Shown piece after piece: positions 17,241 through 49,259 of a DNA stretch of 49,259 bases. The position numbers and the translations under genes were made by a program. The stretch spans positions 1 to 49,259 of the forward strand of contig JABANN010000232.1 in assembly GCA_013115125.1 (NCBI GenBank), written 5' to 3'. How positions within the stretch are numbered: the stretch's first letter is position 1; every line of letters begins with the position of its first letter. The notes beneath the pieces are model-generated. The model searched no databases and was not told the DNA's origin. It saw nothing but the letters and a program-made list of their open reading frames with translations. Origin of the DNA: Perkinsus olseni. Taxonomy: Eukaryota.

Positions 17241-20200
17241 TTAAAAGGCTCTGTTCAGGCCGTGATGTTTTAACTTGAGCGGGTCGAAAGCCTTCGCTTT
17301 TGAACTCGAGGCAGAAACCATACGCGAAATGCGAGGTGAGAATTGTCGCATGCGGACACTGCGGTACATGACATGTGAAGGGCGGATGAGGTCATATAGC
17401 CCCTCGCTGCCCTGGCGGCTGCTCTGGCGAGTTGGACGGCCGACCCTTTCGGACTGAAGCTTGAGCTAGCTCCCTTATCTGGGAGGGTTACTGAGGATGT
17501 CAAGCGCTCAGATGGCAGGAGGTCTCACCTTCGATAGAGGGTTAGACGAGGAGTGCCTGATTGGTGAAGGGAGAGCCTTGTATTTTCCTCCGTACACCAC
17601 CGGGGAGCCTCTTGCAGAGCCAACAGCTGCTGTGGGTGAACCTGCGACCATCGATCTGGTAGAAAGACATTATCGTAGCACCCCACCCCGGACGGGCCTC
17701 TTGCGCCAATGAGCGTGTGCTGTGGAGGGTAATCCGGTATTTCGGTTTATGACCTGACAGGGAGTCATGATAGCGCGGGCAACAAGAACAGGCCTCACGG
17801 AGCTCCTGTAGCGGTAGACGCCCGCTTTGTTCTTGCCAAAGCGATTGTGCCCTTTTTGTGGTTCATCCTTGGAGACGCTCGCGTTGCCTTGGTAGTCTAG
17901 GCCGCGAGGCCCTGCTGATGGACCGAAGATTCCAAATGAGCATCAGTTGAGCACGCTACTTCTAGTGTGCTCAAGAGAAGATCTGCTGCTCCTCCGTTGG
18001 CTTGCCAGAGGGGCTTTTCTGTGCTGGCGTGAGAGAAGTTTATAGCGACTAGGAGGATGGTCTATGTGCGGCAGCTTCACAGTCGTTGGGGTGGGGGTCT
18101 TGGCTCTACTAGGCGGCTTGTACTGGGGCGATTGAGGCTCCGCCTGCTGGCGGGACGTTATCGGGCCCTTGGTAATCTCGTCGACGAGGTCCTTCATTCC
18201 TTTGATTTTGCTCGCTCGTGGTATCCCGAGTTCACGAGCTTGCTCCGCCGCGCTAGAGTCAGATGCTGCTAAGTTTCCCACATGGGGCAAGTCCGAGTCT
18301 CTCGTGGCACTGGTGAAGTCGCCTGTGCGCAGAGGTATATACCTAGCTCACCAGCTGCTAGTCCATGGCATTAGACTCAGTTGCCGCCCTACGAAGCATG
18401 GCTGTTCACTCCATCAACTTGATCGCGTTGCTCGTCGGTCAGGACCAAGCGGTGCTCTTCTAACATCTGGTCGCGCAGTTTGATTTGATACTGAAAAGAA
18501 GGTCACGATAGGTAGTCCATGATGAAGAACACGGAGGGAAGAGCTCGGGGACTTCAACATAAGAAGACTGCAGCAGCTGGCATCCGGAAGAGTTTTGGAG
18601 ACGACTTCTGTTTATTATGGCGTGACACCCGCCTCCTTTGTGTTAAGAGACGTGGCAAATGTACAGCACGATGTATAGGGGAAGCGTCAATCGATAAAGA
18701 GCACAGGATAGGGAAGCTGCTGCCGGCTTCATCAATCGGATGCTCAACTTAAGCTTTTGTATTTCCAAGTTTTTCTGGTGGACTATCATCTCATGTGCCT
18801 TCAGCATCTGCTGGGCTTGCTCGTAGGACTCCATTGCTTCCACTTCCAGCACCTACAGCGGAAAGCCACGGCCTCCCCCATCAGCCTCGTTGCTCTACTT
18901 GATTTCGGAACATGAGCTCTAGAAATGCACGGACGTCATCGTTGTGAACCTGGACCAACTGCAGTGCCCCATGAGGTGCTTCAAGTATCGGTTGTTACGG
19001 TATTAGGGAGTTTCGCTTGGAGTGCGTGTAGCACCTCCTCGTTGTCTCTCAGCCGCTCAGCTAGCATATGCCGATTCCTGAGATTAGAGCCTTCACGCTG
19101 GTCAGAACGGTATCTTGTCACTTCTCGCTCGAGGAAATAGATTCCTCGATCAGGCTCAGGTCTTGTTGCAGTTCCCCAATAGATTTCGGAGCTTCATCGG
19201 TGCCCGTTGGAGCAGCTCCACTTGCGGCCTGTTCTTCCCATCGGCTTATCGACAGCATCACGCCGGCCTTAGCAGTCTGCTGTGTTTGTGCTTCGATCTC
19301 AGTGTCGATGAGGCTGCGCTTCAGCTGAACTCGCTCCTCCACATTGTTGACCAACTCCTGCCGCCACCTGCTAAGCAGGCATCCTATTAGCAGCGAACTA
19401 CCGCTGAGGAGTTCCAATAAGCGTACCTCTCAGAGGCTTCACGCTCGGGATCGTTTGTTGGGGACATCTGACAGACCCGGCTCAGCGAGATCCTCCGCAG
19501 TCGAGAGGCTCACCAGCTCCTGCGGCGTGAAGGTTTGCGACTTTGTCGCTAGTTTCTGCCTCAGGTCCGTCACCTGCCAAAATCCACCTCTCCCCAAATG
19601 CCGAAGCAACACTCTCCCACCACTGCTCTCAGTTCGTTGATAATTTGTGTGTACTTGGATATATGAAAGCTAACATTAAGGACGTTCCTCGTTACCTGAG
19701 GCCATGACGCCTTCTACTGCATAACCAGCTAGTATCCTCACCTTAGTTTTGATTTTCTTCGCTCTGTTAGCATACTTGAGCGTATTGTGAGTATCCTCAT
19801 AGTTGAGGTGGCATGGTGATATGTTAGCTATCATAACAGTACGACAGTTGCCTCCAAGAGAGTCCTTCAGTAACCTTGTAAGCTTGGAGTCTCTATAAGG
19901 CACGAAACTGCTCTGCTTCCCCCCTGCTTGATCGGCCAGTGCAGTGATGCAGTTCCCCAGAGCCAGCAGAGAGCGATTGATGTTGGCACCTTCGATCATC
20001 CTCAGCCCCTTGTTGTTCGTCTGACTGGCGCGTTCACTCCCAGCCAAGTCTATCATCGACAGTTTCCCAACCAAAACCTCGGCGACGAGCCCACTGCCCT
20101 TCTCTCGCTGTTCTACCACCACTTGGAGTACAGCATGTGAACGGGAAGAAGTCTCATTGGCCGAAGTGGGCTCGGTTGTCCGATTCCGATTGCCACGTTG

Positions 20201-21674
20201 TAGCAAGTCCATGATCTCCTGCGCGGACTCGAGCCCGCCCACTTCACTGATACCGGCAACGCTCATGCCTTTAACTGGGTCCTCTCGCAGATCGAGGTAG
20301 TCAGAGCTAGAGGAGGCCAGTAAGTCTCTAATGTTCTCGTTGTAGACCTATGCAGCACGACGAAGCGCTCTGGCAGGTTGATAGATCTCGCACGCGGCAC
20401 ATGGTTGATGCAATGCCAGAATGGAGCGATGAATTTTCAGGTCCTCACCTCCAGAAAGCTACACTTGATTTGGATGTGCTTTTCGTTGCGACGCTTCAAG
20501 GCTTTCACGTGCTCAAACAGGTCCCTGTATGTCACTGAAATGCGAATCGTTCCTTAATGTTGACCACCCACCTCAGAGTGAGGGTCATGGTCCCAGGCTG
20601 GGTGTAGCTGCCCAGCATCGTATATGTCTTCCCTGAGGAGAAAAGGACAATTCTTACAGAGGCATGGGGGACCCTTCCCCAGCACCTGCGCCTGTAGCCC
20701 CGTATGCGAAGACCGTCGCGTTGAAGCCATGGAGTACACCGGGTATGAGGAATTGGGCAGTGTTCTCATAAACATGGCTCTGGGAACAGTTGGCCTCAAA
20801 AACATGGTCGAAGGCGTATCTATGTACGGGCCGTTCCTTTTCTATCAACTCGGGACCTATCTGGCCTCACCGCCGCTCCTTCGACTTATTCAAGCGAAGA
20901 TAGTCATCGCTGGCCGTCGTTCCAGGATCCATCAACACCACCACCTTATTCTCCAATACCTACTTCACGGTCCTGCTGACTCGCACCCCACCAGATCACA
21001 AGTCCACCTACCCTGAGGACCTCCCTTCCACCCTGGGCCCGCTCGAACGGTAGAAGGCTTCTCGTTCTGACAGCCACCATGATGTTACCTGAGGACCGCT
21101 CGCCCTATCGATAAGCACTGTAGTCCGGTGCTAGCTCACTCGATCCGCTCCCCATTCGCTTCATATGGTCCTCGGTGGAGCTGTCCCTCCCCATCGGGTG
21201 TCCACTGATACACCCATCAACCTCCCCGTCCCGGCGTTCCAGCAAGGGTGACAAGTCTCGATCACCGTGCAGGGTACTGGCCACGTGCCGACTTACCGAG
21301 GCCGGTGACGTCGATTCACTGACGTTGGCTTGCACCATCCCCCGTCCTGCAGAAGGTATGCTCTTCGCCGCCTTCGGCTCAGTCACTGACGACACTAGTC
21401 CACCGTTGCTCCGTTGCGGAGAGGTTGGGACAACCATCCATCGAAAAGCTTCTGAAAACCTCACGAGAACTCGCGGCCAGACGAAGTACTGCTTGCACGA
21501 AGTTGCACGGTTTAGCGCTCCAATGTCCATATCACCTAACTCGATGCTCCGTAATCTTTGAGACGTTTGGATCGGTTTGCCATATTCATCTGCGTCGTCC
21601 GATCGTGTCTCGTAAGGCCGAATCATTCTCCTTGTCTGTATGAGTGCTTCATTGGGGCAGCTTCTCGTAAGCAT
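17241..21674 (-). CDS. Kinesin-8 family motor (KIF18/KIF19-like), multi-exon; start and 3' exons approximate
   Basis: [34 protein letters not shown] (P-loop), [77 protein letters not shown], followed by coiled-coil and low-complexity tail exons. Confidence 0.92.
21397..21545. repeat. 149-bp direct repeat, copy A (in the kinesin 5' region)
   Basis: Aligns without gaps to 24291-24439; about 22 mismatches counted by eye (~85% identity). Confidence 0.9.
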
Positions 21675-24591: not shown

Positions 24592-25665
24592 TCACAGCCT
24601 GGATGGCGTTAACCCACCCGACTCCTCGAGCATCTTTCTCAGCTCATCACTAGCAGAGTCAGTGTCCCTCTCGATGAAAATGTCCCGGTAGTTGTCTGCC
24701 CGACCAAACCGAAACATACCGTGAGGTGGTGCTGTCAGGTTGACCAACAGACGAGGAGTGGTCCTCGGCAGCAGGATAGGTATCTGGTTGCACGGTCCAA
24801 CCTGCAGGCTGGTCCCCATGACCACAAGTAGCGTCGCTTGGGACAGGTCCTCCTGGACGCAATCGAAAAATCGCTCCGGTAGGTTCTCGCCGAAGAAAAC
24901 AACATCGGGCTTCACCAGACCGTAGCAGGCAGCGCAGTGGACCGGCTTCTCAGAGCTCAGTAAGTCGTTCATCTCGCCACCGTACGGGCATCCACAATCA
25001 ATACACCGGGCCGAGCGCAGATGGCCGTGGGCCTGAACAGAGGCGCGTGAAATCATCTCACCAAGCCGTAGTCTTACCTGTACAACAAGCTCCTCGGGTA
25101 CGCCTGCATCGATCTCCAGACTGTCGATGTTCTGAGTGTAACACCGTAGCAAGGCGCCCTTCTCGGCCAGCCAAGCAATGAACCTGTGGGCTGCAGTTGG
25201 CTCGTGAGCCCCCCTACCAAGTTTGGCCTCATGACACAGCCTGTAGAAGGGATACGGGTCATGTCTGAAGTAGTGGATCGAGAAGAGGTCTTCAGGGGCT
25301 CGAAGGCTATTCGTGTACTGCTTGACGTTGGCGTAAATTCCCGTATTGGGAGAGCGGAAGTCGGGGATCCCGGCGCTCACCGAGATGCCAGCCCCGACCA
25401 GGACCACCACCCGTTTCCAATACCTGCTGGGGTCCGAGCAGAGTGTCTCTAGGCTAACACCATTATCTGAAGACAAGGGCAAGATGCAGCAGGAGGAACC
25501 GGGATGGATGGCGGTAAGTTTACCTCCGAAGACGTCCTTGAACCGTTGTGGCAGATTGGTCGGGCTGGATTCTGAAGCGGTGCTGAACACAATCGACTCG
25601 GACTCAGCATCAGAGTCAGTATCACTGAGGGAGGCGCTGCGTTGGGACAAAGGGGAGGAAGACAT
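24592..25665 (-). CDS. SIR2: NAD-dependent deacetylase, class I sirtuin (SIRT2/Hst2-like)
   Basis: GAGISVSAGIPDFRS, YTQNIDSLE, QAHGH, CIDC...CAAC zinc ribbon, KPDVVFFGE, GTSLQV. One in-frame 45-nt intron at 25033-25077. ATG at 25665. Confidence 0.95.
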   Translation of the reverse strand: MSSSPLSQRSASLSDTDSDAESESIVFSTASESSPTNLPQRFKDVFGGKLTAIHPGSSCCILPLSSDNGVSLETLCSDPSRYWKRVVVLVGAGISVSAGIPDFRSPNTGIYANVKQYTNSLRAPEDLFSIHYFRHDPYPFYRLCHEAKLGRGAHEPTAAHRFIAWLAEKGALLRCYTQNIDSLEIDAGVPEELVVQVRLRLGEMISRASVQAHGHLRSARCIDCGCPYGGEMNDLLSSEKPVHCAACYGLVKPDVVFFGENLPERFFDCVQEDLSQATLLVVMGTSLQVGPCNQIPILLPRTTPRLLVNLTAPPHGMFRFGRADNYRDIFIERDTDSASDELRKMLEESGGLTPSRL

Positions 25666-25809
25666 TAAAGAGAGGAAATGGGGTATGTTAAACTCAGAAG
25701 ACAAGTCCTCCCGACATCGGTTGGGGTGAACGCAGTATGTGCAACCATGCCATATAAGCATACTTGTTGCTCATAAACGGTTGATTTACGGGCGGTGAAA
25801 AAACTCTCT

Positions 25810-26812
25810 TCAGTCGCCGGGAGGAGACGTGCACATCCTTCTCTTAGAATTGCGGTGAACGTCCGACTGCTCAGCTGCATGCGATGAGGGTCTGGAGGAG
25901 TCCATGGGCTCGAAGGGGGTCGCCTTGCCCACAAGGTTACGGGCTGCAAGAACAAGACGAGGTCGCACTATGAATGATACCGAAGGTATGGTATGAGACC
26001 TTCCCCTCTCACCAGCACGGGAGCTGTACGCGTATTTATCGCTGAGCACTTGGCCGTCCTCGAGTATTCTAACTTCTACACGACCATCCTCCGTACATCG
26101 CACATCATGGACACGCTGGACGCACCTCGGGCCGCTCTGGAAAGGAAACCATGATCTTGTCAGCGAAGGCGGACAGCACTGACCTCCCACTTCCCGGGAA
26201 TAGGGCGTCGGGTCTTCGGATCGAAGGTGACGGGCCGAGACAGTCGTGTACCATCTCGTAGATCGATCTTATACTTATGCCAAGGGCAGCTGAGGCACGG
26301 GATCCCGTCAATCTGAAAAGGGCGGCATGAAGCGGTGGCGAGGGCTGAGCGGAGCCTTGCAAGGCACCGGACGACCGACATACGATAATACGCACCTCCT
26401 CGATATCTCCGCTGGTCAGTGGCCCACCCATGTGGTAGCATATAGAATCTAGACAGTAGATGGATGGTGACTCGGATGAAGAGGCCTGTGGCCGAGAGTC
26501 GAAGAACAGTGATATGTAACGACCATCAATCTGAAACCGGTAGGGGAACTCAGCGCCAGGTGTTGCCGCTGCCATCCACAGCTGGGTTCAGCATCAATGG
26601 CTGTGGAGTAGCCTGAGCATTCAAGCAATCCTCCTTGAGCTCACCTGGGTATGAAGCCGCCGCTGCCTCTTCAGCTTTGCAAGAGTGCATACCGTATGCC
26701 ATCGAGATTCCTCTGTCCTAGGCCGGCCTCCCCCGCCAGCGGTGATCTCACCCGAGCTCTGAACCTCTGGATCCAAGCTGTCCGTAATTTTAGAGGAAGA
26801 GGAACCACTCAT
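25810..26812 (-). CDS. Soluble Rieske [2Fe-2S] domain protein (RFESD-like), multi-exon
   Basis: CYHMGGPL and CPWH ligand motifs on adjacent exons, plus the downstream QRVHDV motif. First intron 26531-26644. Confidence 0.85.
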
Positions 26813-28185: not shown

Positions 28186-31100
28186 TCAGCGATACTCGGC
28201 AACACAGCTGCTGGTAGGCCCATCACAGCGCTGGCCGTAAGGGCAGTCGTCATCGACCTTACAACAGCCACCATTCTCAGAGCAATGAATAGAGCAGCTC
28301 GGACCTGAGGGAGCAAAGATCTACCGATGTTCTACCTAGCGGGCCTACTACCACTATAACCCGGTATACAGGTACAACTGCCCGTCTGTGTTAGGCCGTC
28401 CACGCTGATATTGCGAACACAGACGCCTTGGCCGGAGCATGGAACCTAGACCGGCAGGTCGGTGAGAGAGCCGAGAGGAAACACCGCTACGAGACCGTAG
28501 ATGGAGGTGGAAGGGCGGTAAGGCAAGCAGCCTTAAAGATGTATACAGGGTACATGATCGAAATACAGATGGAATGGAGTATGAACAAGGAACTAGTGCT
28601 AGATCTTATGATAGGTTGATGGTATATATCATTAGATTTAACGACGCTAGAGCGCACCGAGCAACCTGAACTCACCTGAACTGAAGGTAAGAATCGTGAT
28701 GGGCCGCTAGGGCAGACTCTGTGACCACAATGACACGCTCTCTCTGGCTTCCCAAAATGGCTCTCGTAAAGCCCCAGGACCTCTTCGGCTAACAGGGCTC
28801 CTCTGATCAGAGTCACTGAGTGAATGGCCCCCGAGAAGAAGTTGTTATGGGAGTCATCATGAAGGCCAGCAATGCCTTCCAGTAGCGTACCAGTGAAGTT
28901 GGATGCCGTTGACAGGTTAACGTACCTGAGACCTGACCGAAACAGGCACGAAAGGTAAGGCGACCATACGCAGTCGAGCGGACTCCCATGACAAGTCGGG
29001 AATTATTGTTCCATGCTGATGAGCTGATCGCAGAGCCGTTATAGGAGCTGCCGTATTGCTGGCCATTACGATAGAGGGTTATAGTGTTACCACCGAATAC
29101 CGCAACTACGTGAACCTAAACAAGCGATCGGCAGCCCGTGACCTCAATGCCTAGCTACAAGCTGTGTGGTGTTCTCCGGCTTCCCCACGACATCACGGCT
29201 CCTGATGTCCCCTTCGGATGTTATGGACCAACCTCTCGGCTGCAGTAGACCGTAGGTGATTGTGTCGTACCTGTTATGTGCTTTCCTCTACCAGGTAGAG
29301 GTCATAGGGAAGGGAGGGGTGAGGGGCCTCACCGTAGACCACAGGCCGAGCCGTAGCAGTCTTCAATCCCAAAGACACCGCCGCCACCAGCATGCTCGAG
29401 CAAGGTGAATTCCTTGATGGCGATGACCTCCAACCGAGAGGTGGGGTCCTCGTACCGATCCGGGTGCCACATACGGTCACGAGCCCCGGAAAGCTCCATC
29501 CGAATGCAACGGGCTTGGAAGTGGACTGTCGTTGGCACGAAAAAGACGTAACTGACACATTCTCATCAGTGGCGACCTTCCGCAGTTCAGGCAGCCGCCC
29601 GACGTCATCTGAGTATCGTATGTCCCAGCAGGACACGACTGGCCCATTGACGTGGAGAAGGACCTCCAGGGCCCATCCAGTAGCAACAGGCAGCACTCAC
29701 TCTCCATTATCCCTGATGGACTCGACCAACGTATATGAGACACAGTCCACGCTCTGATATAGTTGGATACTCATAGCACGGTATAGGAACTCTACGTAGA
29801 CCCCAGCTAGGTTAAAGAGCTCAGAGAAGGTCACCTGAGAAGCCACCTAGATGACACGGAGTTACCAACAGCGCGGTAGACATTCTACAAGGACCGTGTG
29901 AAGACTTCACAAATGCTAAGCAGACGATACTGGCGAGTACCGTGAAGGTGGCCGTGTCTACGCCTTGTCGCGTGCTCCAGTATGTCTCTCGACTACCATC
30001 TAATGCAGCAGTGGATGGGAAGGACCAAACCCCTGTCGGAGCCGCACTGTAATGCCGCCGCGCAAGATTCTGAATAGGACAGTCTTCACAGACACTAGCG
30101 TGCTGTGCTGTGGCACCGTTCCACCTGATCCAGTCGGACGAGAAGGTTCCTGATTGACATGCCTATCTTATTGGGCTCATTGGCCGTGTCATCAAAGGCC
30201 CGGACGAAGGAGATTCGGAGATACCGCATGTTGACAAAGCCGGTAAATTGCTCGAGCTTCTCATCGAAGTTCACTGGACCGATCAAGGGGATATCTGAGG
30301 CCGCCAGATCGTACCACATCATTCCCATCTCGCAGCGCCCGACCTACCCGACCACGTGACTGAGTCCTCTGAAATCTCGAATCGCCTATCGCCAAGGGAT
30401 GAAGGTTGCATACCCCACAGACATTGAACCATATCCACAGGATACACAGCCTGCAGGTCCAGAGTTATTGTGCCTGGGTCCTGTGGCGGGCCAGGGGCCG
30501 CCATCCACATCGTAAGGTTGTTGGTAGATATCGCATTGGCAGCATCTAGCATGTAATGACAGGCTCTGCTCGAAGTGGCAGAAAGGGACTGCTAGACGGA
30601 CGGAGGTGACTAACCTCAGACACTTCCGCCAAGGCCCAGTCAAGCGGGGAACACAGGCCAGCACGCTAGTAGCGCGACGCTACCCGTAGTGAATAGATCG
30701 GCGGCTTCGGCAGACGTCCCGAGGGGCTGCTGGGTGTCCTCAGCCCTCCACACCTCGATCTCTGCTATACGGAACTGTGTCACCACAGGATCCACATTCT
30801 CGTACATCCACACTCGGATACGCCTGGCTGGACGCAAGAGCAGTACCTTCAGGAGCCATCGCCGCCGAAGCCATGGCTTTTGCTTCTCACTTCATTGATG
30901 GCTTCTGTGTTATCAGCGTAAGCCATCACCTGCGTGTATACGCCGCTACGGTCCTCTAGCTCAACCATGAACCGCTTGCATATGTTCACCGAGTTCCAAC
31001 TGAAAGCAAGCTCATACATGGCGAGCCCGCGAGAGGCAATGCTCGCTGATTTCCCTCGCTTGATCGTGCAGCGCGTCGGCATCACATTATGCGTATCTTT

Positions 31101-34100
31101 CCGACTAATGTCTCGGTTGAGGTCGAGCTAGATACTTGAGCCTGGATCCACGTCTCCGATGATCCAGTGTTGACCGAAAACTTCCTGGAAGGGGATGGAG
31201 AGAGTGCCTCAACAAGCTGTCAAGCGACCCCTACGATGTGCTGAGGCCGTCGAAGGCATACTGGGGGTGTTCCGTGTAGTCGGAGGCTTCAAAGCCGCCG
31301 AAGCAACAGCCACTCCAACACGTGTTGGAAGTGCACTTAGTAACGGGCGTGTAGACTGTGAGTCTACGAAGCGCTGACACGGAGCACGCCTAATGCGGTC
31401 GGCGGGGTTGTCGGAAGCCTACCAGTTAGGGGGACGGATTGATAGTTGTTAGGAGCATCGATGGCCACACGGAATTTATCGCTGATGAACCCTTTCCGTA
31501 GGTAGATGCTCTGCTGGGTGCTGCTGATGGTGATAGCAGAGAAGAATTCCTGGCAGTGCGGGTGTAAAATGAGAAGCATGGAACGCTTCGCTCCGCTCGT
31601 GACCACCAAGTGACGGTAAACTCACTGTCCAGTTCCAACGAGCCTGTGATAGATCCCAATGGGAGACGGAGAAGTCACGTGGTGCAGCCAGCCACAAGAA
31701 GTGTATCCCGGAAACTTCAACAGACGACCCCGACGCGGCCATCTCGAAGGTGGCAGATGGCGAGGCTTCCGCTCCAGGGTTTGGTATCCAGAAGGTCTAA
31801 GGAGGCCCGTGCATGCTAAGAGGCTTTGGGAAGCCTTCTCTGGCACAGTGGGCAACCGGAGAGACTCAGATTCGGCGATCGAGTACCAAACAGCACAGCA
31901 TGCGAGTAGAAGCTCACAGAATCCAGGTCATCCAGAGCCTTGTCAGGGGCAAAGTCCGTGGCAGCAGCCTGAGTTTCGGACGAGATGCTCTTTCCCAACT
32001 GCAGCTGTGTATCAAAAGTAACGTCCACGCTATAGAGGCTATACAGCTTAGGCTGCCAGTGGCCGTCAGCCTAACAAGACGGAGAGCTCTCTGCGAGCGA
32101 CGCCTACGGGACGGCGCTACCGCTGAGAGATCGTAGGCTCTCCGGGTCATCGAAATCTTCAGGTAGTTGGCATTGAAGTACTCGCTGACGGAAACGGTCT
32201 TAGCGGTGTTGTCCCGGTATTGGGTCAACAGAGCCCAAGCGGTGCTGTCCAGAGAGCGGTAGATGTCGAAGTCCAGTGGCTCGTCACGGAACTGAGTAAG
32301 GAAAATGACCGGCCAGTGTATGGTTGGAGGTAACCCCCTCGTCGACAGGCTGGAATCGATAGAAACATAAGTTACCACTGCTATCATTCATTCTATAGGG
32401 CTGGTCAAGTGGCAGGCAATATAGCAGTAATGCTCGCAGTGAACGGTACGCAGTCTGCGTAACGCAGATACGGTATCGCGTCCGTAGCTAGGCACTAGCC
32501 CTATCCGAGCTTACCTTAAGAATGACCTGCGATACAAAGTAGGGATGGAGGACCTTCGCTGTGGCTATGTCCCTCAGAGTGATAATGAGCTCCACTTCAT
32601 TAGCGTCCACCTCGCTAGCCCAGAAGGTAGATTCGACCCTAGGTGGAAGGACTCGATCCGCAGACTCCTAGCACCGGCCGCCCACCCGTCAACGGCCTTC
32701 GAAGCCGAGTGGTCCCAGTAGGTGTTGGCGCTAGCTGTTGCTCCGAGACTTGTCAGAGCTAGATTGCTAGATTGATAGACCTCAAAGGACTCGAGCCTAT
32801 ATTCCGTTGAGAACGTGTCTGAAATAACAGCGACCACTGATCCAACAGTGAGCTTCAGCGAAAGTCGAGGATAGCCGCGAGGGCATAGAAGGACAGTCTC
32901 CCCCTTACCCTCAGCTAGCTCGGCTGGGAGCCTCAGAGTGAACATGAGGTGTAAGGCCGGGCGCACGGCGAACTTCGCGACCAGGGTGCTATCCCGATTG
33001 ACGTCTGTCGTGTAGGCGGTAAGGGAGCTCCAATCACAGCCGGTCACATTAGCTTCGGTACACACTCCTACAGTGTACCCCCTGGGGAAGGAGGAAGGCT
33101 CGAAGACAGCTCTGATGCCCCAGACGCTCTGGACACTGGCCAGAGTGACTTGTAAATAATGGACTCCATCGGCATTCACTGTGCTCGCGGCTGTGGCAGC
33201 AACGCCGTCAAGAGCGTATTGAGCTCCAATAAGGGAGCTATCGTAGGTCGCTAGGAAGGCAGCATCAGCCCGCTTCACTTCAAGCTCTGCGATCCTGACC
33301 AAACCGTCGGGCGGCCCAGCTTGAAAGGTAACCCTGATGCACCGCAAACAACCGAGAGATATAGATAGATACACACCCTCGGCTGACGGGAACGTTGGTG
33401 CCTGCATGTGACCGTCAGATCGATCCAGATACGCGAAGCTCCGAGCAGCGAACCGCGGCCACTGACCATCAGCATCGTCAGTCCTACCTGGTTAGTGTTG
33501 CCAGGTCCGTACCTCTCCCCAGGATCGGAGTAGTCTGCGCAGTCTGGGCTACCCTGTATAGTAAGCTCCGTGGCTGTGTAGGCCGGTGCCCCGAACCATA
33601 GGGTGACCTTAGATATGTCCACGCAGGAGCCGAGGTCCAGAGTATAAGTAGGGTTGGAGGATGCTGGCGTAACCGTGTACCAGTACCTAAACTTCAGTGC
33701 AAGAGGCTCCGCTGAAAGCGAGTTATAGCGAGGATACGACCGATCTGCGCCAGCCTCGCCCGAGATACTCACGTATCAAAGTCGCCATCGACCGCAAGAG
33801 CTGGGTCCGCAGAGGGTGAAGTTATCTGGGACGTCAAGGGAGTGCTCCTCATCGCTATATTGTCGAACGCCGAATACGCTTCCACTGCAGCGAGGCCCAT
33901 GATCTGAGGATGCAGGCACTTCAATCGCCTCAGGCTCCGTTCCTCACACGATTAACGTAAATTATGGTATTGCGTTTCTCGAATTAATAACCCCGCTGAC
34001 GAGCGCGAAGTGATATAGCTGCTCTACCCAGTCATCCCCCGCTCGATCCATCATGCTGTCCCTCATCAACGTTACTCTCAGTAAACGACGATAGTACGTG

Positions 34101-37100
34101 CCGAAGGTGGTGATCGGCATCGCGAAGTAGTAGTTGAAGCCATCGACCTTCACTATACGACTCGACGAGCACGCGAACTCGGGGATATCTTCAGTGCTGG
34201 CAGCTCCCAGGTCGCCCAGAGCCGAAGCCCACAGGCAGCTCTCCGTCCACGTGCCAGTCACCGACTCTCTCAACTGTATTCGGAATGAAGCAGACCGGTA
34301 TGTGAACCTCAAGTGCACGATATCCACCGCGAGGGTAGCGCCTAGGTCGATGTCTAGGTGGAAGTCAGCGATGTCCGAGACGGCACCAGTAGCGGAAACA
34401 CCAGTAGCAGCGAGGTAAGATGGCTGCCTTGCACCGTACGGTACTCGAAAGTCTGTATCATCATCACCGTCTATTGCATGCTTCGGCTCGCCCCGAGCCA
34501 CTGAGGCACCGCTAACGGTCTCCGACGTCGACCACGTGCCATTGGCGACGTAGTTGTAGGTGGGGTCCAGGCCCAGGACGAGGTTCGTCGTTAGACTATA
34601 GACTCTGATCTCCAGTACACCGGCGTTGGATACGTCCGCGTGTGGCTCGTACAGCAGGAACTTCACTTGATCGATCGGAGCGTCCGACTTGTATGTGAAA
34701 GCGTCGGGATGGCTGGCCAGGTTCTGAGTCTTGGAGTAAATCTCTCTAAAGGAAAGACCGCTATCGGTCGAGACGAGCCAGCTGAACGCTCGAGCCGGAT
34801 AAGTCGCGTCAAGAATAACTTCAAAACGGCCAAGGGAAACTCCTCCTGCTGTGAAGGCTGCCAGGTCCATCACAATTGCATCCGAGAAGCCCATGTCGAA
34901 GGTGGCATTCGTCCGGTTGTCGACAGCTACAGAGGGGTCACCGCATGATGAGAGTGTACGCTCGTTGGTACAGGTGAGATTGAAGGGATACACCAGGTGG
35001 CTGAGGACGTTGGTCGGTGTCCAGCCATAGACCTCAATTTCGGCGACTTGTAGTACGGACGAGGAATAATAAGGCGCGCCTTGTGACAGGAACAACTGAA
35101 GGTACTGCAAGGCCAGGCCGCCGGAGACATGGTCGAAGGGCAAGTCCATGCTCTGGAGAGTTGATGCTGAAAAAAAGGGTATCGCGAAGGGTAGCAGCAG
35201 CGACAACCCACCTGTATCACAAGTGCTCGTCGAGCAGTTCAATGAAGACCAACTCACACCATCGTCGCTATGAGAGAGGGTGATTACGCCGGGGACATAG
35301 CCTTCCCTGAATCTCACTCGAACCAAGGTCACCGGATTGTGTACTTGGCCGAGATTCACTCGCACCCACGCCGACTCCTGGCCAGGCTTGGCGCTCCACC
35401 AGGTCCGGTGGTCGCCGTCGAAGGCGTAGACAGCAGGATAGTTCCATCGGTTTACCGAAGTCACAGGCTTCAGTCTAGCGATGTTAGTGTCGAGTTTGAC
35501 GTCAACTTCCCTTATGCTATAGACGAAAAGATTGGCGCTCGGCCCAGGCCCCCGGACCGTAGCTGCCTGGTGCATCCTGATCCGAAGCCTATCTGCAGTG
35601 AAGAACACCGTACTGGTCGTGGTGTTGAGGTTATTATCCTCGTACGCTTCTATCAACGACCAGGTAGAGCCGCCATCTGCGGTAACCTCAATGTCGAAAT
35701 CGAGGGCTCGATGGAACCAATGTATGACCGTCGCCTCGGCATAGATAGTGCCGTTGAAATGGACCTCCCACTCGGCCTCGAACACCCGAGCATCGCTGAC
35801 CTGGCTGGACCAGTAAGTACTCATGTCGCCGTCAACAGCCATCTCCGACGTGTACGCTTCGCTCCACTCCGACGTCACAATCGAGGTAGTAGAATTCTTC
35901 ACGCCCAGATTGGTGACCTTCTCGCTGCCGTTCACCGTGACCCAAACCTCGAGGGTCTTGTCCTGCAACTGACCCCAGTCGGGCGGCAACGGGTCAGTGT
36001 ACGCCCACTGTTTCTGTGTCTTGTCCAGTATCATCGCACCATCTACCACAGGGGCGCCGTTCTGAATATGGCAGCCTACCCCGGAACCCAGGGAGTCGTG
36101 GCAGCCGGTCGTGTCGTTGAAGACAAACCTCGCCAGTTTCGTGTAGCACTTGTCTCTACTAGTGAGCTCACAGATGGCGTTGATGCACTCTAGTTCGTCA
36201 TACCACACGCTGTTGTTGATCGCCGAGAATCGCGACAGCACTTGTGAAGGCATACTGTCCATCGCCAGCAGATTGGGGGCGCATACCGCACCAACCTCAG
36301 TGAAGTCTCGGCCAGGGCATTCGGTCAAAAAATGCGTCGCGACACCATTGAAGAGTTCAGTGGCATTCTCGAACAGCGGGGGAAGAGTGACGGCCAAGTC
36401 TTGGCATGTTGTCCATGGATCCCTGCCAGCGTTGATGGCGGAGTAGGCGCACTCCTTCAGCTGATTCCTGTAGAAGTAGTTCAGCTCGAGCCTGAACAAT
36501 TCAGAGGGAGATCAGGTGGACAAGCCAGACTAGACCGATAACTACATTTTGGGCCCGGCGAACATGCAAGTTCCGCAGCTCTGGCCAGCGGGCCAATGTA
36601 GGAAGGCCGCTCGAGTCGGCGGACCGCACTGGTACTTGCAGAACTCCGCGTCGTAGAGGGCAAGACACTCGAAACATTCCTGACATACCAGGGCTGCCTG
36701 AGGGTATGCTTCAACCTTGTTGCTGCCATTACCATTCTACACATGGGTAAACGCTGGTATAATGAGTTGGGCATTTCGGCGAGCAGATGCTATCGTGTAT
36801 ATACTATAGCAGACAACCTGGATCACGAGAGCGGCAAAATCCCACCTCCCTCGTTCTCTGCAGCGTCCTCAACAAGAAGACATCATGCGACTGTATTTGG
36901 CCTCGAATGTTCAGGTAGCTGTTGGCATTATCTCCCATGTCGTGGCAGTCACACGTGTCGCCCTTGATCTCTCCATCGCTCACCTCGCCCCCATCACGGG
37001 TCCAGCTCAGAAACCTCGGCTCGGGACTGATCTGGACCATGCGCATTGAGCTGAGAAGCAACGAGCACAACCTCACCTGCGGCTTGGTCGGGTTGCCAAT

Positions 37101-40009
37101 CCGGTACACCTGATAGGCCGTACTGCATATCCCCGCCTTGTAGATGAAGCCACAATGGCTGTCGAATTTACACCCTGAAGGCTTAGGGCTTGCCCACAAT
37201 CCCTCCACCATCAAAGCTCACCCCTGCAAACCGAATGCCGCTGATACTGCATCAATGGTCGCCCCTCACTGAGGCTTCCGACCCGCGGCATGACCCTCCA
37301 CGGATCCGCCGTGGCCGAGAAGGACGAATCGAGGGCATCCCAAGTCATCTGCGAGGCCTCCAGGCACGTACAGGTAAAGCCATACCTGGCCCCGCACCGC
37401 TCCTGGTGGAATACCGAGTACATGTCCTGTATGGCGAAGACCCGAGTACAGTAGTCGCAGTCACACTGGGCGAAGTAGAGACGGTAAGGGTTGTAGCGAT
37501 GCTCCATCACACAATAGCGGAAGAGCGAGCGCTGCTTGAAAGACACCTGAAGAGAAACATGAAGAAGCGCTCTTTTCTCGGACAGGAATCGGCGCCGGGT
37601 TGGAGCAGCGCCCGCCGACTTGGAAGTACATATCCCCAGGCTAGGGACCCCAGCTATTTATTCAGCGACACTTTAATGATCTGAGAGAGCTCACCAACTA
37701 TCTCAAAGTTCCTATTGAAGATCCACCGCGCACTCGTCGTATACGGTAACGAAAGTCTTCCGCGGCGAGAAGACCTCAATTCGCAATAAACGTCGAAGTT
37801 CCCCTAGGCAACTAGGAGGCTACGGAAAGGCTTACCGTTCCAACGCCCTGGGCTATATTCAGCAGATGCTCATCCTCAATCTTAACACTCCTCGTGCCAT
37901 CCTGACTCGTGATGACCAGAGCCGCCAGGGTGTTAGTGTAGCGGAACTCCTTTTGGCAGCCCAGAAAATAGGGATGGATATGGTCCCACTCCAGGAGACC
38001 ATTCCGGCACGGCCGACTTCGGAAGGACTTCGTGATCACGGTCTCGTCGTTGGCGGCGTCCGCAGCAACGGGTGCAACACCAGTAGTATTCAAGAGCAGC
38101 GCATCAGAGTACATGGCAGAGACCTCCACCGCTGTCCGACCAATGTTCTGGATAATGAGCGAACAGTGCCTGCAAAGGGGCATTCAATAGCGCGCCATTT
38201 GACAACATCCATTTGTGGCATCAACAGAAAAAGTTCACTATATACAACACTTACCCACACCCTAATGCGCATAGTAGCTAAAGTCCACAGCCACTACCCG
38301 CAGGCTGGCACAAAGACGATACCGACGGGAAAGGGACATTCAGCATAGCTTACGTGTTCCCAATGGAGCCAGTGCACGTCTGGCGGGTCTCCAGTGGGCG
38401 GTGCTCGTTATCACACACCGCTATTCCCTTTGATACCACACCTTTCCGTCCCTCCCCGCTCACAGCACCAACCACCTCAGCATAGTCCCCGCCCGGGCAC
38501 CTGTCGTGTGTCTTCAACTTCCAACTCAATATCGTTGGAGCCGCGAACTGCTCAAAGCCCGTGGCCGCTACGAAGCCGACCCATGCATGACCAGGCCTGG
38601 GCTCGTCGTCCCCTTTAGTGAAATTTGGATGCTCGTAGGTCGATACACCGTCCACTCGGACGACCTTAGCCAGGTCAACCAGTGTGTTGACGACTACTTG
38701 GCCGTTGATCTCGACACTGAGTGCCCCGAGGCGGCCGTTGACCCAGTTCTCCAGAGTATGGAGCGGCTGACTCCCACCAATGAAATCGCTAGACCAGGCA
38801 GTGAAGGACCTGTCCCACCTCGGTTCACCATCTTGAACATCGTAGCGTATCTTAACTTGATGCGTGCCATTGTTGAGTCGCGGGAGGCGGTCCCCAGTAG
38901 CCTCGGCCAGCATGTTGACGACGTGGTCAGCCGAGTTGGCCGTCTCGCCCTCATTGGGTTGCTTAGCCCAGGGTACCATCACCGCCACATGATTCCAGTT
39001 GGGGTCGTTAGAGGTGGCATCAAAGTAGAAGTCAAACTCAACAGCAAGATTCCGGGCGAAGCTGTAGCCGAGCTGACTGGCATCCGAACCGGATATCTTC
39101 GCTTCTAGTGACTGTGGGTTACCCTCGTTCTGGATCACAAAGGCGAAGCCTCGGCCGCCCTGGGGCATGCACCAGCGGCGGCCCTCGCTGGTCGGGGCTG
39201 ATATTGGACAGTACTGCGAAGCGTGGAGTACTGTAAAATAGAAGGTGGTCTCGAAGCCGTAGGCAACGGCCTGCTTCTGTCTGAAGAATATTCCTCCATA
39301 TCTGTCTGGCTTGGGGGGCACTAGCCTCGCACCATAGACGCATATCTGGGAAGGCAACCACACATCAGGACGAGCAGGGCAGATTTGCCTGGTGGGAAGA
39401 CGGTCTGATCTGTTCCCACCTGGCGCCTAGAATGAGGCAGAGGTTCCATCCCTGCATCTGGCACCCAGTCCGTCGTACGGCATACGTAGGTATAGGATTT
39501 ATTCACGACTCTCCCCGCTTGGGAGCTATCCAAGTAGGCGAAGGCATTTGGGTGGGTCGGTGGACACGGGCCTTGGTAGATGTTGATCTGCCGGGGGGCC
39601 TGTGTCCGGTCCGTCCTGAGGGTGAGCCATGGACACACTTTAGAAAAGGAGATCTCCAATGCGGCGACAGTAAGACAAGGAGCAGCATGAAAACCACGGC
39701 CTCACAGCCCTACCGCAGCTGACGGTAACGAAAGTAGTCCGGAGACCTTGGTTCAGTCTGGGAGTTGTCCAATAGATTGGACGACGCCACGCTGCTGCAG
39801 ACCTCCTCTGGGAACTCCATCGAGTAGAAGCCAATCTGATACGACAGTTCGTAAAGGCACAGTGGAAGCACAGCAAGGAGCACCTCCGCATCTAACAGGA
39901 TGTGCATGCTAGTGATAGCTCCAGTAGGGTCGGTGACAAATCGGTCAATGTCAATATCGCCACGAATACCCAGAAGGGCCGTCAGCGTGGAAGACAACCG
40001 TAGAATCAT
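28186..40009 (-). CDS. Giant secreted multi-lectin protein: legume-type lectin, expansin-like segment, Cys-rich region, LamG-like domain, about 12 F5/8 type C (discoidin) repeats, C-terminal EGF-like domain
   Basis: N-terminal MILRLSSTLTALLGI. L-lectin motifs GFETTFYF, GFAFVIQN, LAVEFD, NHVAV, AWVGFVAATG (38500-39300). Repeated A(V/I/F/L)DG..T.W and I.E.EV discoidin motifs (29400-35930). LamG motifs DKTLEVWV and VHVVAVF..TITLYRNG. C-terminal CSGQGVC...CTCIPGYSG, stop TGA 28186-28188. Confidence 0.8.
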
Positions 40010-40075: not shown

Positions 40076-41421
40076 CTACCCACCACCCAGACGTATGCCA
40101 TCCAGCTGAATTTCGAAGCACAACCGACGCAGTGAGTATGAGAAACATCGTACTACCCCACACGAACATCGTAGCTGGCCACAGAGGTACCTATACAAGG
40201 ACCCTGTGCTTACCAGCCAAGGGTGCCGCGCCTTATCACCTAGAAGGGCGTGGCCGCTCCGGTTGGCCCAGTCAATCTGACTCTCCCGTTCGACAAAGCC
40301 GCTGACCTCCAGCCGCTTCACAAGTCTCCCCAGCACACCGCTGGACAGGTCCCCGATGATCTTGCCCAGCCCTTCGCCGACATACCATCCCCTGCCCGCA
40401 ACGCATAGGTTGGGCAGGGTGGCAACCCGCAGACGGTTGAATTCGAGGAGGCCCTGGCTGTAGCCCAGAGGGAACGACGGCCATGCGTTGTGGCTCATCT
40501 CGCTATACTCAGGTTGTTGAGATATACCCAGTATCTGAGAGAGAAAGCCTTCACGAGCACCTCAGCGCCAGAATTCAACTAAAGTGGGCCCCGAACGTTC
40601 GAGGACGGGGTAGATCCTTTGAGGGATCGAGGAGTAAGCGGAGAGTTTTTTCCGCAGTGGAAGGACAGCTGAGTGGACCGAGCTGCTTGGCTGGTTGGGC
40701 GATGTGCTGTTGGCCGTGACACCAACAAGAGCAGGAGAAGGGTTGCACAGGTTATGGCAGTAGTACCTTGAGAGCATGGCCCTGCAGCTCTTCCCTCGCG
40801 CACCCCTTTCTGGCATACGCAGTGACCTTCGTACCGTAGTCAGGATGATGCACTCGGGAGAATATCTCCGAGGCAAAAGAAAACCCGAAAATCCTGAGAA
40901 CACCACCGTGGCCTTCCCTCTCATCGACAGCGATAGTAATCCCTAGCAGACGGCCACAGTTTGTGGAGGCCTACCCGCACTCATCCCCGTTGTTGACTCC
41001 AGTCCAGACCCCCGCATTCCCCTTAAACGGCTTCCGCAGGACGTCCTCTTCACGCCAGTAGAGGTCCAATACGTCCACCTCGTTCTCCGCACTGAGCGCC
41101 TCAACTGCAGCTTTGGTCAGCCCCGGTAAGCTGGGTCCGACCAAGGGCAGCACCTCCTTGGGCGACATGACCGCGACTACTGCCTGCGACTCCGGCCCAC
41201 AGAGAGTAGCAAAATCAGAGGGACTCAGGGGCTGCTGGCCTCCCTGCCTCGAGATGCTTGGATTCCCCTCTATGAACCTAAACTCTATCGATGCATTCGA
41301 CCCTGGCTCGCTCGACTCTGCACATCAGACATTCATACGGTAACTCACACTCGACAGAGCACCTCACGAACCCCGCGAGGGAGCCATCGCTCGTTGTACG
41401 CGTTAAGAGATTGGTGTACAT
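40076..41421 (-). CDS. Hypothetical multi-exon protein; boundaries uncertain
   Basis: Consecutive minus-strand ORF pieces (FRFIEGNP..., VLDLYWREEDVLRKPF, YYCHNLCNP, GLLEFNRLRV) separated by short GT-AG intron-like gaps. No domain recognised. Confidence 0.45.
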
Positions 41422-41599
41422 TACACGCGCTATATGAGAGTTCTTCCAACCGGCAACCCATGAGTCGCAACGAGAGGCTGTTGTCTACCGCTTCAAGTCC
41501 TCCTCCAGTCTGCTGTTGCCTCCAGCTACAGTCCAGACTCGGCCCCCTGTAGCAATAGATCTTTGCAGGAACTCTCCGACGTCAACCGGCAGGTCGAGT

Positions 41600-42502
41600 T
41601 TACGATCCCCACTGGGCGCTGCGGTACTCGGCCGCAACGTGTCGAGGAATGGTCCCTAGAATGGCCAGATGTCCTCCGATATCGAGAGGCCTCAACTCAC
41701 CCAAAGGACAGACCTCCGCCAGCACTCGGTCGTGTGGGCATGAGGGACGCAACTCCGTAGACTGACTTCCTCTGCTGGGGCCCCGCATTGTGACGCCGCG
41801 AAGACATCAGCGAACCTCCGCGATGCCGATCTCGAGAACCGGCGACTGATCTACAGCGAGAAGATCGGAAACACCTAGTCAAAAGTGGGGAGCGGAGCCT
41901 CGGTGAGGGCTACACGATGAGAAGTGAGAGATCGCCGAGCCAGGAGAAGGGACCGGATCCCCGCTTACGAAGGCCTGTATCGACTCGTCCCGGCCCAGGG
42001 GTCCCTTCCGCCAGAGGGGCTCCAGGACGCACTCGGGCGCATAACGTATGGAGTCGACGAACTTCGGTATTTGGGTGAGGGAGTTGAGGGTCTTGCCGAT
42101 CAGCCAGCGGCTGGAGTTCTCTATATGACCGGGTATGATATCAGAGTCCGGTACCTACAGGGTCGGCAGTGAAGCATACCACTCCTTCCCCGCAAATACC
42201 AACTATGGCAGCAGCCAACGCGTTCTCACGTCCAGCAGTTTGAGTAGTTGCAAGCACTCATTCCGACCATGCAGCTTGCTGGAACGGAACTCGCAGCCGT
42301 GGCCGACCGGTCCGCTCTCACTCGGCACTTCGAACATTTCTACCCGACCTCTCGGCAAAGCCTCGGCCAACAAGGCTGCGGCTGCCATGCCCGGCAGCCG
42401 ATGGGAGGCAGAGGCCACTACCCTCACTAAAGGATATGGTGCCATGCGAAGTGCAAAAACTGAGAGGAGGCCTAGACCCCCCGACGACCCCCACCCCTCC
42501 AT
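41600..42502 (-). CDS. Hypothetical multi-exon protein; boundaries uncertain
   Basis: MEGWGSSGG...LLKLLD exon spliced to VPDSDIIPGHIENSSRWLIGK...IQAF and further exons ending AQWGS-stop. Confidence 0.45.
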
Positions 42503-42567
42503 CAGACTGAACACAAGGCTGATGATACAGTGATGAAAACACCGAGGCGTGTGCAGGCATGGAAGGG

Positions 42568-45500
42568 TTATTCAGAGCTACTCACAGATCGCTTCCGATA
42601 AGACCGCTGCGAATCGGTCGGAGCCCGGCGGTCCAGTAGAACCAGATTCATCTCCTTCAGAGAGAGCTCCTTCGTTACGACCTCCCCCTCGGACCCGTGG
42701 ACAGTCACGAGTACCTCACAGGAGGGAAGTCCTCTTCCCGTCAACTTCCACTCGGCCCCTACGGTCCACCGAGGAGGCCCCTCGGCTGTACTAATTGGGC
42801 CGCTGTGGACCACGCCATCGAGTCCATTGTATCTAAGACCCGTAACCCAACATTCCCCCATGGACATATCGGCGTCTCGCGACCTACTCGAGCCGTCTCA
42901 GTCCCATCAGCCTGACCCTCGCACCCACGTACAGCGGCACCTCAGTCGACGAGGGCTGCACTACCGGAGCCACCTCATTGTACCGGGAATATATACCTGC
43001 TCCGAGGACGATGGCCCAGGCCACGTGACAGGTAGCCCGACCCCTGGGTAACCATCGACGGATGACCTCCATCCACCCGCCCGAAGACTGGCCCTTCTCA
43101 CCATTCTCGTACCTGCCATGACGAGAGTGGCAATCCCACTCGGCAGGAGCCTCAACCTCCTCGACAGACGCCTCCGTCTTTTGATGATGTACCCGCCTCC
43201 GCCGGCCAGCAAGAGAACTCCTACCACTGCGACTACCACTGCCACCACCTGAGCAGCTTACATCTACTCCAGCAGTACCAGACACGGCCCTACAGCCCCA
43301 CTGCCACCGCCGTCATCGTCCTCTCTCGAGCCTGGGTCAACATTTCCGTCAAGAGCAGCTGCTGTTGGGCCCCGCGTGACGTTCACCCAGAGCGTATCGG
43401 GAACATCGACCCCATGCACTGCGACCTACCCTCAACACACCATCCCTTCCATCGCTGCTCCTCTGCCGAAAACCTCACCAGCGTCCTTCTGAAGTCCGTG
43501 AGGAACTGCCTTGCCACAGCCGTATCAATCCTGATCGCCGAGAGCCACCTTGTAGCCGCGAGTCTTCGACTTTGATAGAACGTATCGATGGCTACCACCG
43601 CCAAGAAGGCTCCAGCTGGCAGCTAAAGACAGAACAGCCACGTCGGGTGCATCCGGTCGGGCAGCCTCCCGGCGCTACTGTCCCTTCCAAGCCAGCATCA
43701 GGTGGCCTTGTCGTCCCGACTACTGGTGCTCGACTGCCTCCCTCACACGAGTCACAAGTAACCCTGCATGCTCTCTGCATCAGTTCCCCCATGAGAGGGT
43801 CATCACAGGCGGCCGGTACTCCTATCAACTGGACTGTAGCTACGCAGGTATCCAGCAGAGCCCCTCCGAGCGTCAACTCCGACTCCTGCACTAGGTACGC
43901 ATCCTGGTCTTCGCACAGGCCAGAGTCGAACAGCAAGGGACGAGCAGTGGATACGGAGGTGGTCTGATGAGATGAAGGGCCCCTTCAGAGAAGCGTAATC
44001 GACGGACGCCCCTCACCGTAGCCACGGTCTGGCTACTCGATGACGTTGTAGTGGTAGTAGCAACTGGACTGAGCAGTGTAATAGAGCTCGACTCAGTCGA
44101 ACTTCTCATTGCTGTTGTTCTCGTTGTTGCCATCGCTGTTGTTCTCGTTGTGATGGCCATACTCGCCGGAGTACTCGTCATAGCAGTAGGTGAAGGCGTA
44201 GAAGTAGCCATCACCATCGCTGTTGAAGGGGAGCTCGAGGTGGACGGTGCAGACGTAGCTGATGACGTAGTCCGCGCTGTACTACCAGTGGTAGCGGCAG
44301 TCGTGGCCGAGGTAGCACTAGGCGCAGGCCCGGCAGTGGTAGTAGTAAGGCCCTGCAGCTGCCGGGCCTGCCTTTCCTCTACACTCACCTGTACCAACAA
44401 AACTTTTCTGTATACGAGTACCATGTACCACCGTCCCGACTTACCGTAGCTGGATCTGAGATCTCGAGCCCTTCCACCACCACATCTTTGACGGCCGCAA
44501 GTATATTCTGGGGACCCACGGCCTCTAGGCGACCGTAGATGGTCAACTCCGCTGTGACTCGGGCCCGCTCGGGAGTGTCAGGCCTGGCCGTAGTGGTGAG
44601 GATGGCCCACATGTCGAACGGTGTTGCCGTCGTCGTTGGGCCGGCCGGAAAGCAGCTCTCGGCGACTAACGCGTTGGAGGAGAGGGCCACCGCTGAGGCC
44701 CCCTCTGGCAGCCGAACGGTCACCAGCCCAACTTCTCGCCATACTGCTGCCTAGAGGAAGCCACTCGACTCACCACATCCCGACAACTATCACCTCTTCC
44801 TCATCGCAATCGATATTGCAATGACACAGCTTGAACTCGCCACACTGGGACACCGACACGCCGTCCCAACGATGCCAGAACTCGGCCTGTGCGGCTGGCG
44901 GTGTATCCCCGAGAGGGTAGAAGGAATCATGGTCTTCGTCCTGAAAAGCGACGACACCCTCTACTTGTAATCTACCTGGCCGTACAGAGAGTCCCTGCAG
45001 CCCGTCCACTACCATTTGCTCCCAGTGCAAGCCCGCAACGCCCCGTATCTGTTGCCCTTTACAGTCCCCTGTGCGTTCTACTAGCTTCAACCTAGATCCT
45101 CCTCCCCCAGCCAGTCCCACTCCAGTGAGCTCAACATCAAAGACCTCCGATAACTGGCACGACCCATACACAGCTACTAAATGCGAAGACACTCACCTCC
45201 ACTGTGAGGTTCCGATAGAGGCCAGCGTCCCTGCCCAGCTCGAAGGGCCCACCGCTGAACTTCCTGAAGTACTCCTCATAGCAAGTACAGTGGCAGTCAT
45301 GGCCGCTGGCCACCGCCTGTTGGCAGGACAGCTGAGCAGCACCGTGTACTCGATCCCAGCAGCCCAGACCGTCCTTCCCGGCCGCCTCCTCTCGACGGCA
45401 TCGCGAGCTGCATTCCCCAAAAGTGTCACCACACGTCTCAGGACAGAACTCCGCCACAGGAACGGACAGCTCTCCCTCTTGAGGCCGCGTGCATCCATAC

Positions 45501-48720: not shown

Positions 48721-48972
48721 TTACATCTTCTCGAAAATGTCCTTGACATCAGCCCAGACATCATCAACCGAGCGATCGGCGTTCACCTATGCCATGGTTT
48801 TAATGACTCGGAAAAGTCTACCCTCCTCTATTACCCTTCTCTCCTTTCCCTTAGCGGCGAACCTCTGGATGATGGGCCTGGTCTCGGCCTCGTAGGTGCG
48901 GAAGCGCTTCCGGATGGATTCCAAGTTGTCATCAGAACGGCCACTTGTCTTGCCACGAGATAGGAGACGCTT
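48721..48972 (-). CDS. UMP-CMP kinase / adenylate kinase family, last two exons (5' part beyond the window)
   Basis: KRLLSRGKTSGRSDDNLESIRKRFRTY (LID region) and VNADRSVDDVWADVKDIF, stop TAA 48721-48723. Confidence 0.88.
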
Positions 48973-49259
48973 CTGGAAAAAACTCGACCATACCGACTGC
49001 TGACCGACGGACTGGCTTGTCCGGAAGGTGGGAATGCGAGGACCTTCGAAGTTGTTCAGCAGACTAACTCTGAGGCTCCGAAATAATGATGACTCAAAAT
49101 GCGCAGAAATCGATCAACAAAAAACTACCGAGCCGCCCTATTATCATATGGATTCATCTAAACTCCGAGAACTTATCGGGTCTGTCTGCTGACGCCACGG
49201 CTAAGCGTTAGGTCCCAGGCTAGAGTTCAACAGCAACAACAAGCCCCGACATCTACCTC

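Follow-up and report, generated by a model that had tools for sequence, protein, structure and literature searches.

The window analysed here is a 49,259-nucleotide stretch of Perkinsus olseni DNA (GenBank assembly GCA_013115125.1, contig JABANN010000232.1, positions 1 to 49,259), that is, one whole 49-kb contig out of a 39.9-Mb assembly. A single minus-strand gene, running from the ATG at 40009 to the stop at 28186, encoded a protein of 2,936 amino acids in which a LamG domain was cut in two by 11 abutting discoidin/CBM32-like repeats. Judged by sequence comparison, this LamG domain split by a repeat array is a real and conserved architecture; the same split was present in 18 of 18 long orthologues examined (dinoflagellates, Amoebophrya and Vitrella), some of them from whole transcripts.

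A LamG domain interrupted by eleven discoidin-like repeats

The motifs quoted in the initial annotation lay where it had placed them, all on the minus strand and within one open spliced frame of this gene: the W of KTLEVWV was at 35944, the motif ended at 35939, and the first G of GGGG was at 29388. The extent of 28770..36140 proposed there contained the motifs, but the gene was longer on both sides. The order of domains was legume-lectin domain, cysteine-rich region, first third of LamG, 11 discoidin/CBM32-like repeats, remainder of LamG, and an EGF/cysteine-rich tail:

28186..40009, minus strand: whole coding region; model of 33 exons and 32 GT-AG introns with a single open frame of 2,936 amino acids
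38502..39958, minus strand: N-terminal legume-type (L) lectin domain, residues about 18-430 (Pfam Lectin_legB, E 5.6e-09, in the open reading frame 38353-39426)
36142..38501, minus strand: cysteine-rich region, residues about 430-970; no known family, low-confidence model
35929..36139, minus strand: LamG N-part, residues 971-1041, ending just past KTLEVWV (profile positions 5-69; HH-align 98.5%)
35489..35917, minus strand: repeat 1, discoidin/CBM32-like (Pfam F5_F8_type_C; fold match to CBM32 4zxe)
35006..35488, minus strand: repeat 2 (Pfam F5_F8_type_C; 102 bits with the family's own repeat profile)
30125..35005, minus strand: repeats 3-10, starting at about 35005, 34564, 33864, 33269, 32765, 32007, 31344 and 30744 (15-102 bits with the own repeat profile; weak Pfam hits in three exons)
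29392..30069, minus strand: repeat 11, its last strand running straight into the GGGG of the C-part (107 bits; junction alignment)
28754..29391, minus strand: LamG C-part, residues 2678-2840, four exons (profile positions 70-175; HH-align 99.9%)
28846..28970, minus strand: extended loop of about 25-30 amino acids within the LamG C-part, the site of a whole extra repeat in the Vitrella orthologue P0072
28186..28753, minus strand: EGF-like and cysteine-rich C-terminal tail (EGF-family Pfam hits, mostly below cut-off, in 9 of 10 orthologues)

A C-terminal orthologue fragment used as query returned 99 matches, including continuous LamG domains that matched from GGGG on. A profile of 210 positions was made from 21 intact LamG domains chosen for a long upstream part (two clusters named Verrucomicrobiota, others with PSCyt/PSD1 of the planctomycete type, the rest called bacterial by inference). 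Because its members had been found with the C-part query, the C-part match was partly by construction, and the N-part match alone was independent. The profile matched the window protein at exactly two places, residues 971-1042 (positions 5-69; 16.4 bits) and residues 2676-2784 (positions 70-175; 58.2 bits), with all else at 3 bits or less. The two parts were 1,643 amino acids apart; in intact domains, 7-11 residues separated the two motifs (16 of 21 domains, those where both were found), in agreement with the short bacterial spacing given in the initial annotation. Aligned N-parts matched template columns 7-69 by HH-align (98.5%, E 3.7e-15) and aligned C-parts columns 74-212 (99.9%); 36 of 41 consecutive 71-residue windows remained below 1%, and the other five overlapped the two halves. 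A six-frame scan of the window with an N-part-only profile placed the N-part first at 22.8 bits, with the runner-up at -4.6.

Joining the window's halves in silico, a check proposed with the initial annotation, gave 94.8 bits, compared with 23.9 for the N-part alone, 63.2 for the C-part alone and 62.0 for the reversed order. None of 200 control joins made with random pieces reached 94.8 (best 70.0), and joins exceeded every control in 16 of 19 proteins. Full-length profile scans detected the C-part in 20 of 20 long proteins. No further LamG-like piece was found in the protein. One LamG domain interrupted in one loop, as originally proposed, was thus upheld by complementary non-overlapping profile matches, by a join above 200 of 200 controls and by conservation in the orthologues. 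Pfam Laminin_G_3 (PF13385) scored 26.2 bits in one exon (28957-29115) and 27.0 bits in the orthologue P0002, both under the curated cut-off of 27.6. The split escapes automatic annotation because this cut-off is reached by neither LamG part.

The first long exon, modelled by AlphaFold2 without the C-part (21 sequences), had a mean predicted local distance difference test score (pLDDT) of 67. The KTLEVWV strand was not formed in it (confidence 51-60), and the 50 residues ahead of that strand (fragment residues 121-170) had pLDDT 76-85. In the fold search with this model the N-part had no LamG among the 50 matches listed, all taken up by repeat 1, and the search was uninformative for the N-part; a single-sequence fold of the C-terminal fragment P0033 (mean pLDDT 29.9) was left unused.

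A repeat profile derived by iteration from this family itself showed the gap tiled by 11 abutting repeats (15-107 bits), and 50 shuffles of the insert scored at most 2.1 bits. The array of the initial annotation was retained, with 11 repeats in place of about 12. Repeats 1 and 2 exceeded the Pfam cut-off for F5_F8_type_C (PF00754; 34.2 and 33.8 bits; cut-off 28.2), and the assignment of repeats 3-11 was based on the own repeat profile plus weak Pfam hits. The model of repeat 1 was a discoidin beta-sandwich (Z 17.9 to CBM32 4zxe, root-mean-square deviation 2.0, 128 residues aligned; Foldseek E 8e-10). An AxDGDxxTxW-type motif occurred in the repeats, complete or degenerate; alignments of the repeats to solved CBM32s reached the motif region only. 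Each of the two array junctions kept a constant length in all 19 of the aligned proteins, and GGGG followed the last repeat directly, without a linker. Repeats 1, 7 and 11 were conserved at 28-33%, versus 13-23% for the others. The loop held 10 repeats in 13 of 18 orthologues, 11 in one and 12 in Vitrella, and nine were detected in three.

The nesting, sought in other myzozoans as the initial annotation had suggested, was found in dinoflagellates, Amoebophrya and Vitrella. Relatives were named as Cladocopium, Durusdinium, Breviolum, Amoebophrya, Vitrella (CEM39928), Polykrikos, Yihiella and Gymnodinium, a range given by the 30 proteins for which names were looked up. The motif-to-motif span was 1,372-1,673 amino acids in the proteins compared. 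In the Vitrella protein (P0072; CEM39928) a 13th repeat (residues 2711-2877) occupied a second loop of the same LamG domain, a site that was an extended loop only in the other 18 proteins. By this comparison nesting occurred at two sites of the same LamG, and the single nested repeat of Vitrella illustrates a proposed starting state of the array.

A search of 616 candidates for shorter relatives whose domain is unsplit or less expanded gave four matches, all fragments ending before the C-part; a first-exon search among proteins of 593-2,000 amino acids gave two matches. Together these searches are weak evidence for the absence of a short form. In a tree without outgroup, a well-supported branch separated the 19 eukaryotic domains from the 21 continuous ones. 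The split may have a single origin. A bacterial origin of the LamG is plausible from its nearest intact relatives, which are bacterial-type, the unrooted tree giving no donor or direction.

Gene model, flanking regions and neighbouring genes

The exon model was based on orthologue-guided exon mapping, splice-site reading and RNA-contig joints. Residues 26-2932 of the window protein were collinear with the orthologue P0002 (32.7% identity, one alignment). Contig joints came from the single sequencing run covering the stretch, which is not recorded as RNA and whose RNA nature was guessed (one study, which may be the source sample). Fifteen of 22 joints were listed, 13 of them in the gene, all matching model introns, and two in the upstream gene; 12 of the 13 agreeing joints had themselves been entered into the gene model. 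The joints listed neither supported nor contradicted 16 of the 32 introns, and the intron 30678-30592, with a weak donor, was picked to keep the frame. Both LamG parts were located within single open reading frames of transcript assemblies in the orthologues P0008 and P0142-P0144 (the latter on 8.4-kb contigs), and were also joined in orthologues on long contigs.

The RNA contig with the first exons began about 18 bases before the ATG (about 40027, minus strand), near an AG, as counted from the joints; this is possibly a trans-splice acceptor. The orthologues P0002, P0063 and P0064/P0140 were single open reading frames of 2,830-2,880 amino acids on contigs of 20-180 kb, apparently intron-free, compared with 32 introns here. 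A close relative of the long exon 35212-36490 in another genome (P0149; Logan, 9 members) stopped at the same intron position. Searches with two proteins and two Pfam families recovered this locus alone in its own genome, with no second gene copy (lower bounds).

The legume lectin domain (PF00139) scored 36.3 bits against a Pfam cut-off of 26.3, and Lectin_legB was also present in 9 of 10 orthologues scanned. A putative short signal peptide precedes it. By eye, the lectin was apparently interrupted after its first strands by a cysteine-bounded insert of about 100 amino acids (about 39420-39835, minus strand; residues about 43-150) conserved in orthologues; alignments to the PDB stopped short of the first strands and left this impression unconfirmed. 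The final 120 amino acids of the cysteine-rich region ranked with the most conserved parts (mean identity 47%); an atlas search with the cysteine-rich/N-part piece gave unnamed clusters only, with no named match at or above 0.9. At about 36845-36950 (minus strand; residues about 775-810), dinoflagellate orthologues held an extra cysteine-rich block of 70-100 amino acids that was missing from the window protein, P0002 and Vitrella. The C-terminus was a cysteine-rich domain, and in the Vitrella orthologue the C-terminal extension was longer and carried a PAN domain. The term adhesin used in the initial annotation was left unproven: no membrane anchor was seen in the window's model by a crude test (no 19-residue window above 1.9 hydropathy) made with no dedicated predictor.

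No Rfam match was found in the window. None of the open reading frames scanned in the gene directly upstream matched a Pfam family at E 0.001, and the other neighbours identified by Pfam were ordinary; the first of them is presumably NAT10-like:

113-2272, plus strand: GNAT and tRNA-binding domains (Pfam)
19679-20347, minus strand: kinesin motor
24595-25770, minus strand: Sir2
26108-26587, minus strand: Rieske domain
46802-47359, minus strand: ODAD1 coiled coil
48790-49113, minus strand: adenylate kinase, weak hit
12229-12645, plus strand: EF-hand, weak hit
about 40080-46000, minus strand: the gene directly upstream, spliced and transcribed (joints 40534-40767 and 40892-40974)

Proposed assembly and alternative readings

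It is fairly probable that the two LamG halves of a chain refold with each other and hold the array closed as a ring or rosette for high-avidity glycan binding. The gene product would then be a multi-lectin that is soluble, probably secreted and conserved among myzozoans. A single discoidin/CBM32 module would have entered an ancestral LamG at the hairpin loop that connects the KTLExWV and GGGV strands. The two termini of a discoidin module lie side by side, and because of this the module would fit such a loop. The inserted module would have multiplied in tandem within the loop to 9-12 copies. The LamG halves, meeting in the same chain, would form a clasp tying repeat 1 to repeat 11. What would otherwise be an open string would thereby close into a compact ring or rosette with many faces for glycan binding, to which the L-lectin would add another binding head. 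The likely role is to bind surface or wall glycans with high avidity, or to cross-link them. Support for this reading came from the fixed junctions, the complementary matches, the join scores, the unformed KTLEVWV strand in the model without the C-part and the second nesting in Vitrella, and the split PH domain of phospholipase C-gamma is a precedent.

Several results weighed against it. Joins failed to beat all controls in 3 of 19 proteins (not beaten: 200 of 200 controls in P0056, 5 of 200 in P0064 and 1 of 200 in P0063), and the N-part went undetected in 4 of 20 full-length scans (found in 16). A His directly after DGDxxTxW, a residue of galactose-binding CBM32s, occurred in 0 of 11 repeats, and the signal peptide was weak in the window's model. 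At this locus no RNA contig of the one run covered both LamG parts. One contig, the sole one to cover much of this part, was gapless from 33286 to 35166 and so retained three modelled introns, the first of which carried a stop at 33962; translated, it would give only the LamG N-part and four repeats, ending at 33962. The exons flanking the retained introns matched orthologues once spliced. This contig may derive from DNA or from RNA that had yet to be spliced, or it may reflect a genuine short isoform. Lastly, the sequence tests fitted pairing in cis and in trans equally.

Pairing in trans, with the N-part of one molecule completing the C-part of the next in a head-to-tail filament or mesh studded with binding modules, fits every sequence test as well as pairing in cis, and a separation of 1,372-1,673 amino acids would weaken the same-chain advantage in a protein that is soluble, cysteine-rich, single-copy and conserved. 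It was considered unlikely, as descent from an ordinary in-chain insertion is suggested by the short junctions of constant length and by the lone nested repeat in Vitrella, and a free N-part would hardly stay folded until a partner was met. Wall, cyst coat, mucilage and extrusome material would be candidates for such a polymer. There is likewise a small chance that the protein self-assembles via the split LamG into chains or nets with 10-12 modules per unit, an extracellular polymer so far unrecognised in dinoflagellates, perkinsids and chromerids, or that it switches between ring and chain.

Loss of refolding is distinctly unlikely. The C-part would then stand alone or be completed by neighbouring strands, and the N-part would be a remnant on the cysteine-rich region or on repeat 1 of a beads-on-a-string lectin. 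This would agree with the pLDDT of 76-85 reached by fragment residues 121-170 already without the C-part, with the divergence of the N-part in P0002, P0045, P0063 and P0064, and with the recognition of the C-part by itself as LamG at 0.96. Core LamG positions of the N-part were nevertheless kept over the whole myzozoan range (35% profile identity; 30% conserved, the level of the best repeats), and nothing else in the protein resembled the missing strands. That dinoflagellates, Amoebophrya and Vitrella all keep both parts speaks against dead remnants.

A structural, non-glycan role, with the repeats as discoidin-fold protein-binding or spacer modules like IFT25 and APC10/DOC and the ring as a scaffold inside the secretory system, is very unlikely. 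IFT25 (Z 16.3) and DOC (Z 12.4) were among the fold matches of repeat 1, and canonical binding residues were not identified in the repeats by alignments limited to the motif region; the best fold and sequence matches were carbohydrate-binding CBM32s, and an L-lectin domain was present in the same protein. An artefact, with two adjacent genes or a wrong exon model bringing the halves into one protein, has next to no probability, as orthologues hold both halves in single open reading frames (transcript assemblies P0008 and P0142-P0144; long contigs), despite the 16 introns without joint evidence, the three retained ones and the weak donor at 30678-30592.

Comparison with known systems

Natural insert domains had a median of about 120 amino acids in a survey that excluded proteins of 2,048 amino acids or more, as given in the part of PMC12328240 available. 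That survey therefore could not contain the split-LamG family. The window insert is more than 10 times the median insert size, a far larger case of a known principle (an array inside a split domain). If the proposed ring is true, a sandwich of 160-200 amino acids assembling around 1,400-1,700 amino acids and 9-12 domains would be an extreme folding case and a natural means of making a binding array cyclic to gain avidity. The family defines an old, conserved, uncharacterised and probably secreted protein found in dinoflagellates, coral symbionts among them, and in Amoebophrya, Vitrella and P. olseni. To our knowledge, the surface lectins of P. olseni are little known. Neither the protein nor its nesting was described in the literature searched, most subscription papers being outside that scope.

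Chromerid extracellular domains include discoidin and Laminin G3, each with separate example genes, in the available part of PMC4501334, to whose gene identifiers the Vitrella protein CEM39928 could not be mapped. The LCCL lectin adhesive-like proteins of apicomplexans and chromerids (LAP/CCp) are modular proteins secreted by alveolates, with F5/8C and LamG domains in combination; in the part of PMC11285972 available, their domains are described in series and they are reported absent from dinoflagellates and perkinsids. LCCL, ricin, SRCR and COLFI domains were not found in the window open reading frames or orthologues scanned; for LCCL, the Pfam search covered 24 window open reading frames, 10 orthologues, and P0072 and P0056. 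The window protein is not assigned to LAP/CCp, for lack of an LCCL domain in these scans and of the LAP-type order.

Intact bacterial-type Laminin_G_3 domains (PF13385; Verrucomicrobiota, PSCyt/PSD1 proteins, e.g., MCW5556457 and MEE2947916) had the same motifs in the same order over the whole 210-position profile. They differed in being continuous (7-11 residues between motifs, compared with 1,643 amino acids in the window protein), and none of those retrieved carried a discoidin repeat. The nearest solved CBM32s, the Paenibacillus chitosan-binding modules 4zxe and 4zz5, shared the fold of repeat 1 and the AxDGDxxTxW-type motif, whereas the window repeats were 11 in tandem, nested in another domain and about 20% identical. 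Phospholipase C-gamma resembles the window protein in that a tandem array divides one of its domains: its PH domain is split around an SH2-SH2-SH3 array, and the halves fold as one once the insert is removed (PMC2573054, from the part available). The phospholipase C-gamma insert has about 335 amino acids and three domains of unrelated families and is intracellular, whereas the insert of the split LamG has 1,370-1,670 amino acids and 9-12 domains and is probably extracellular.

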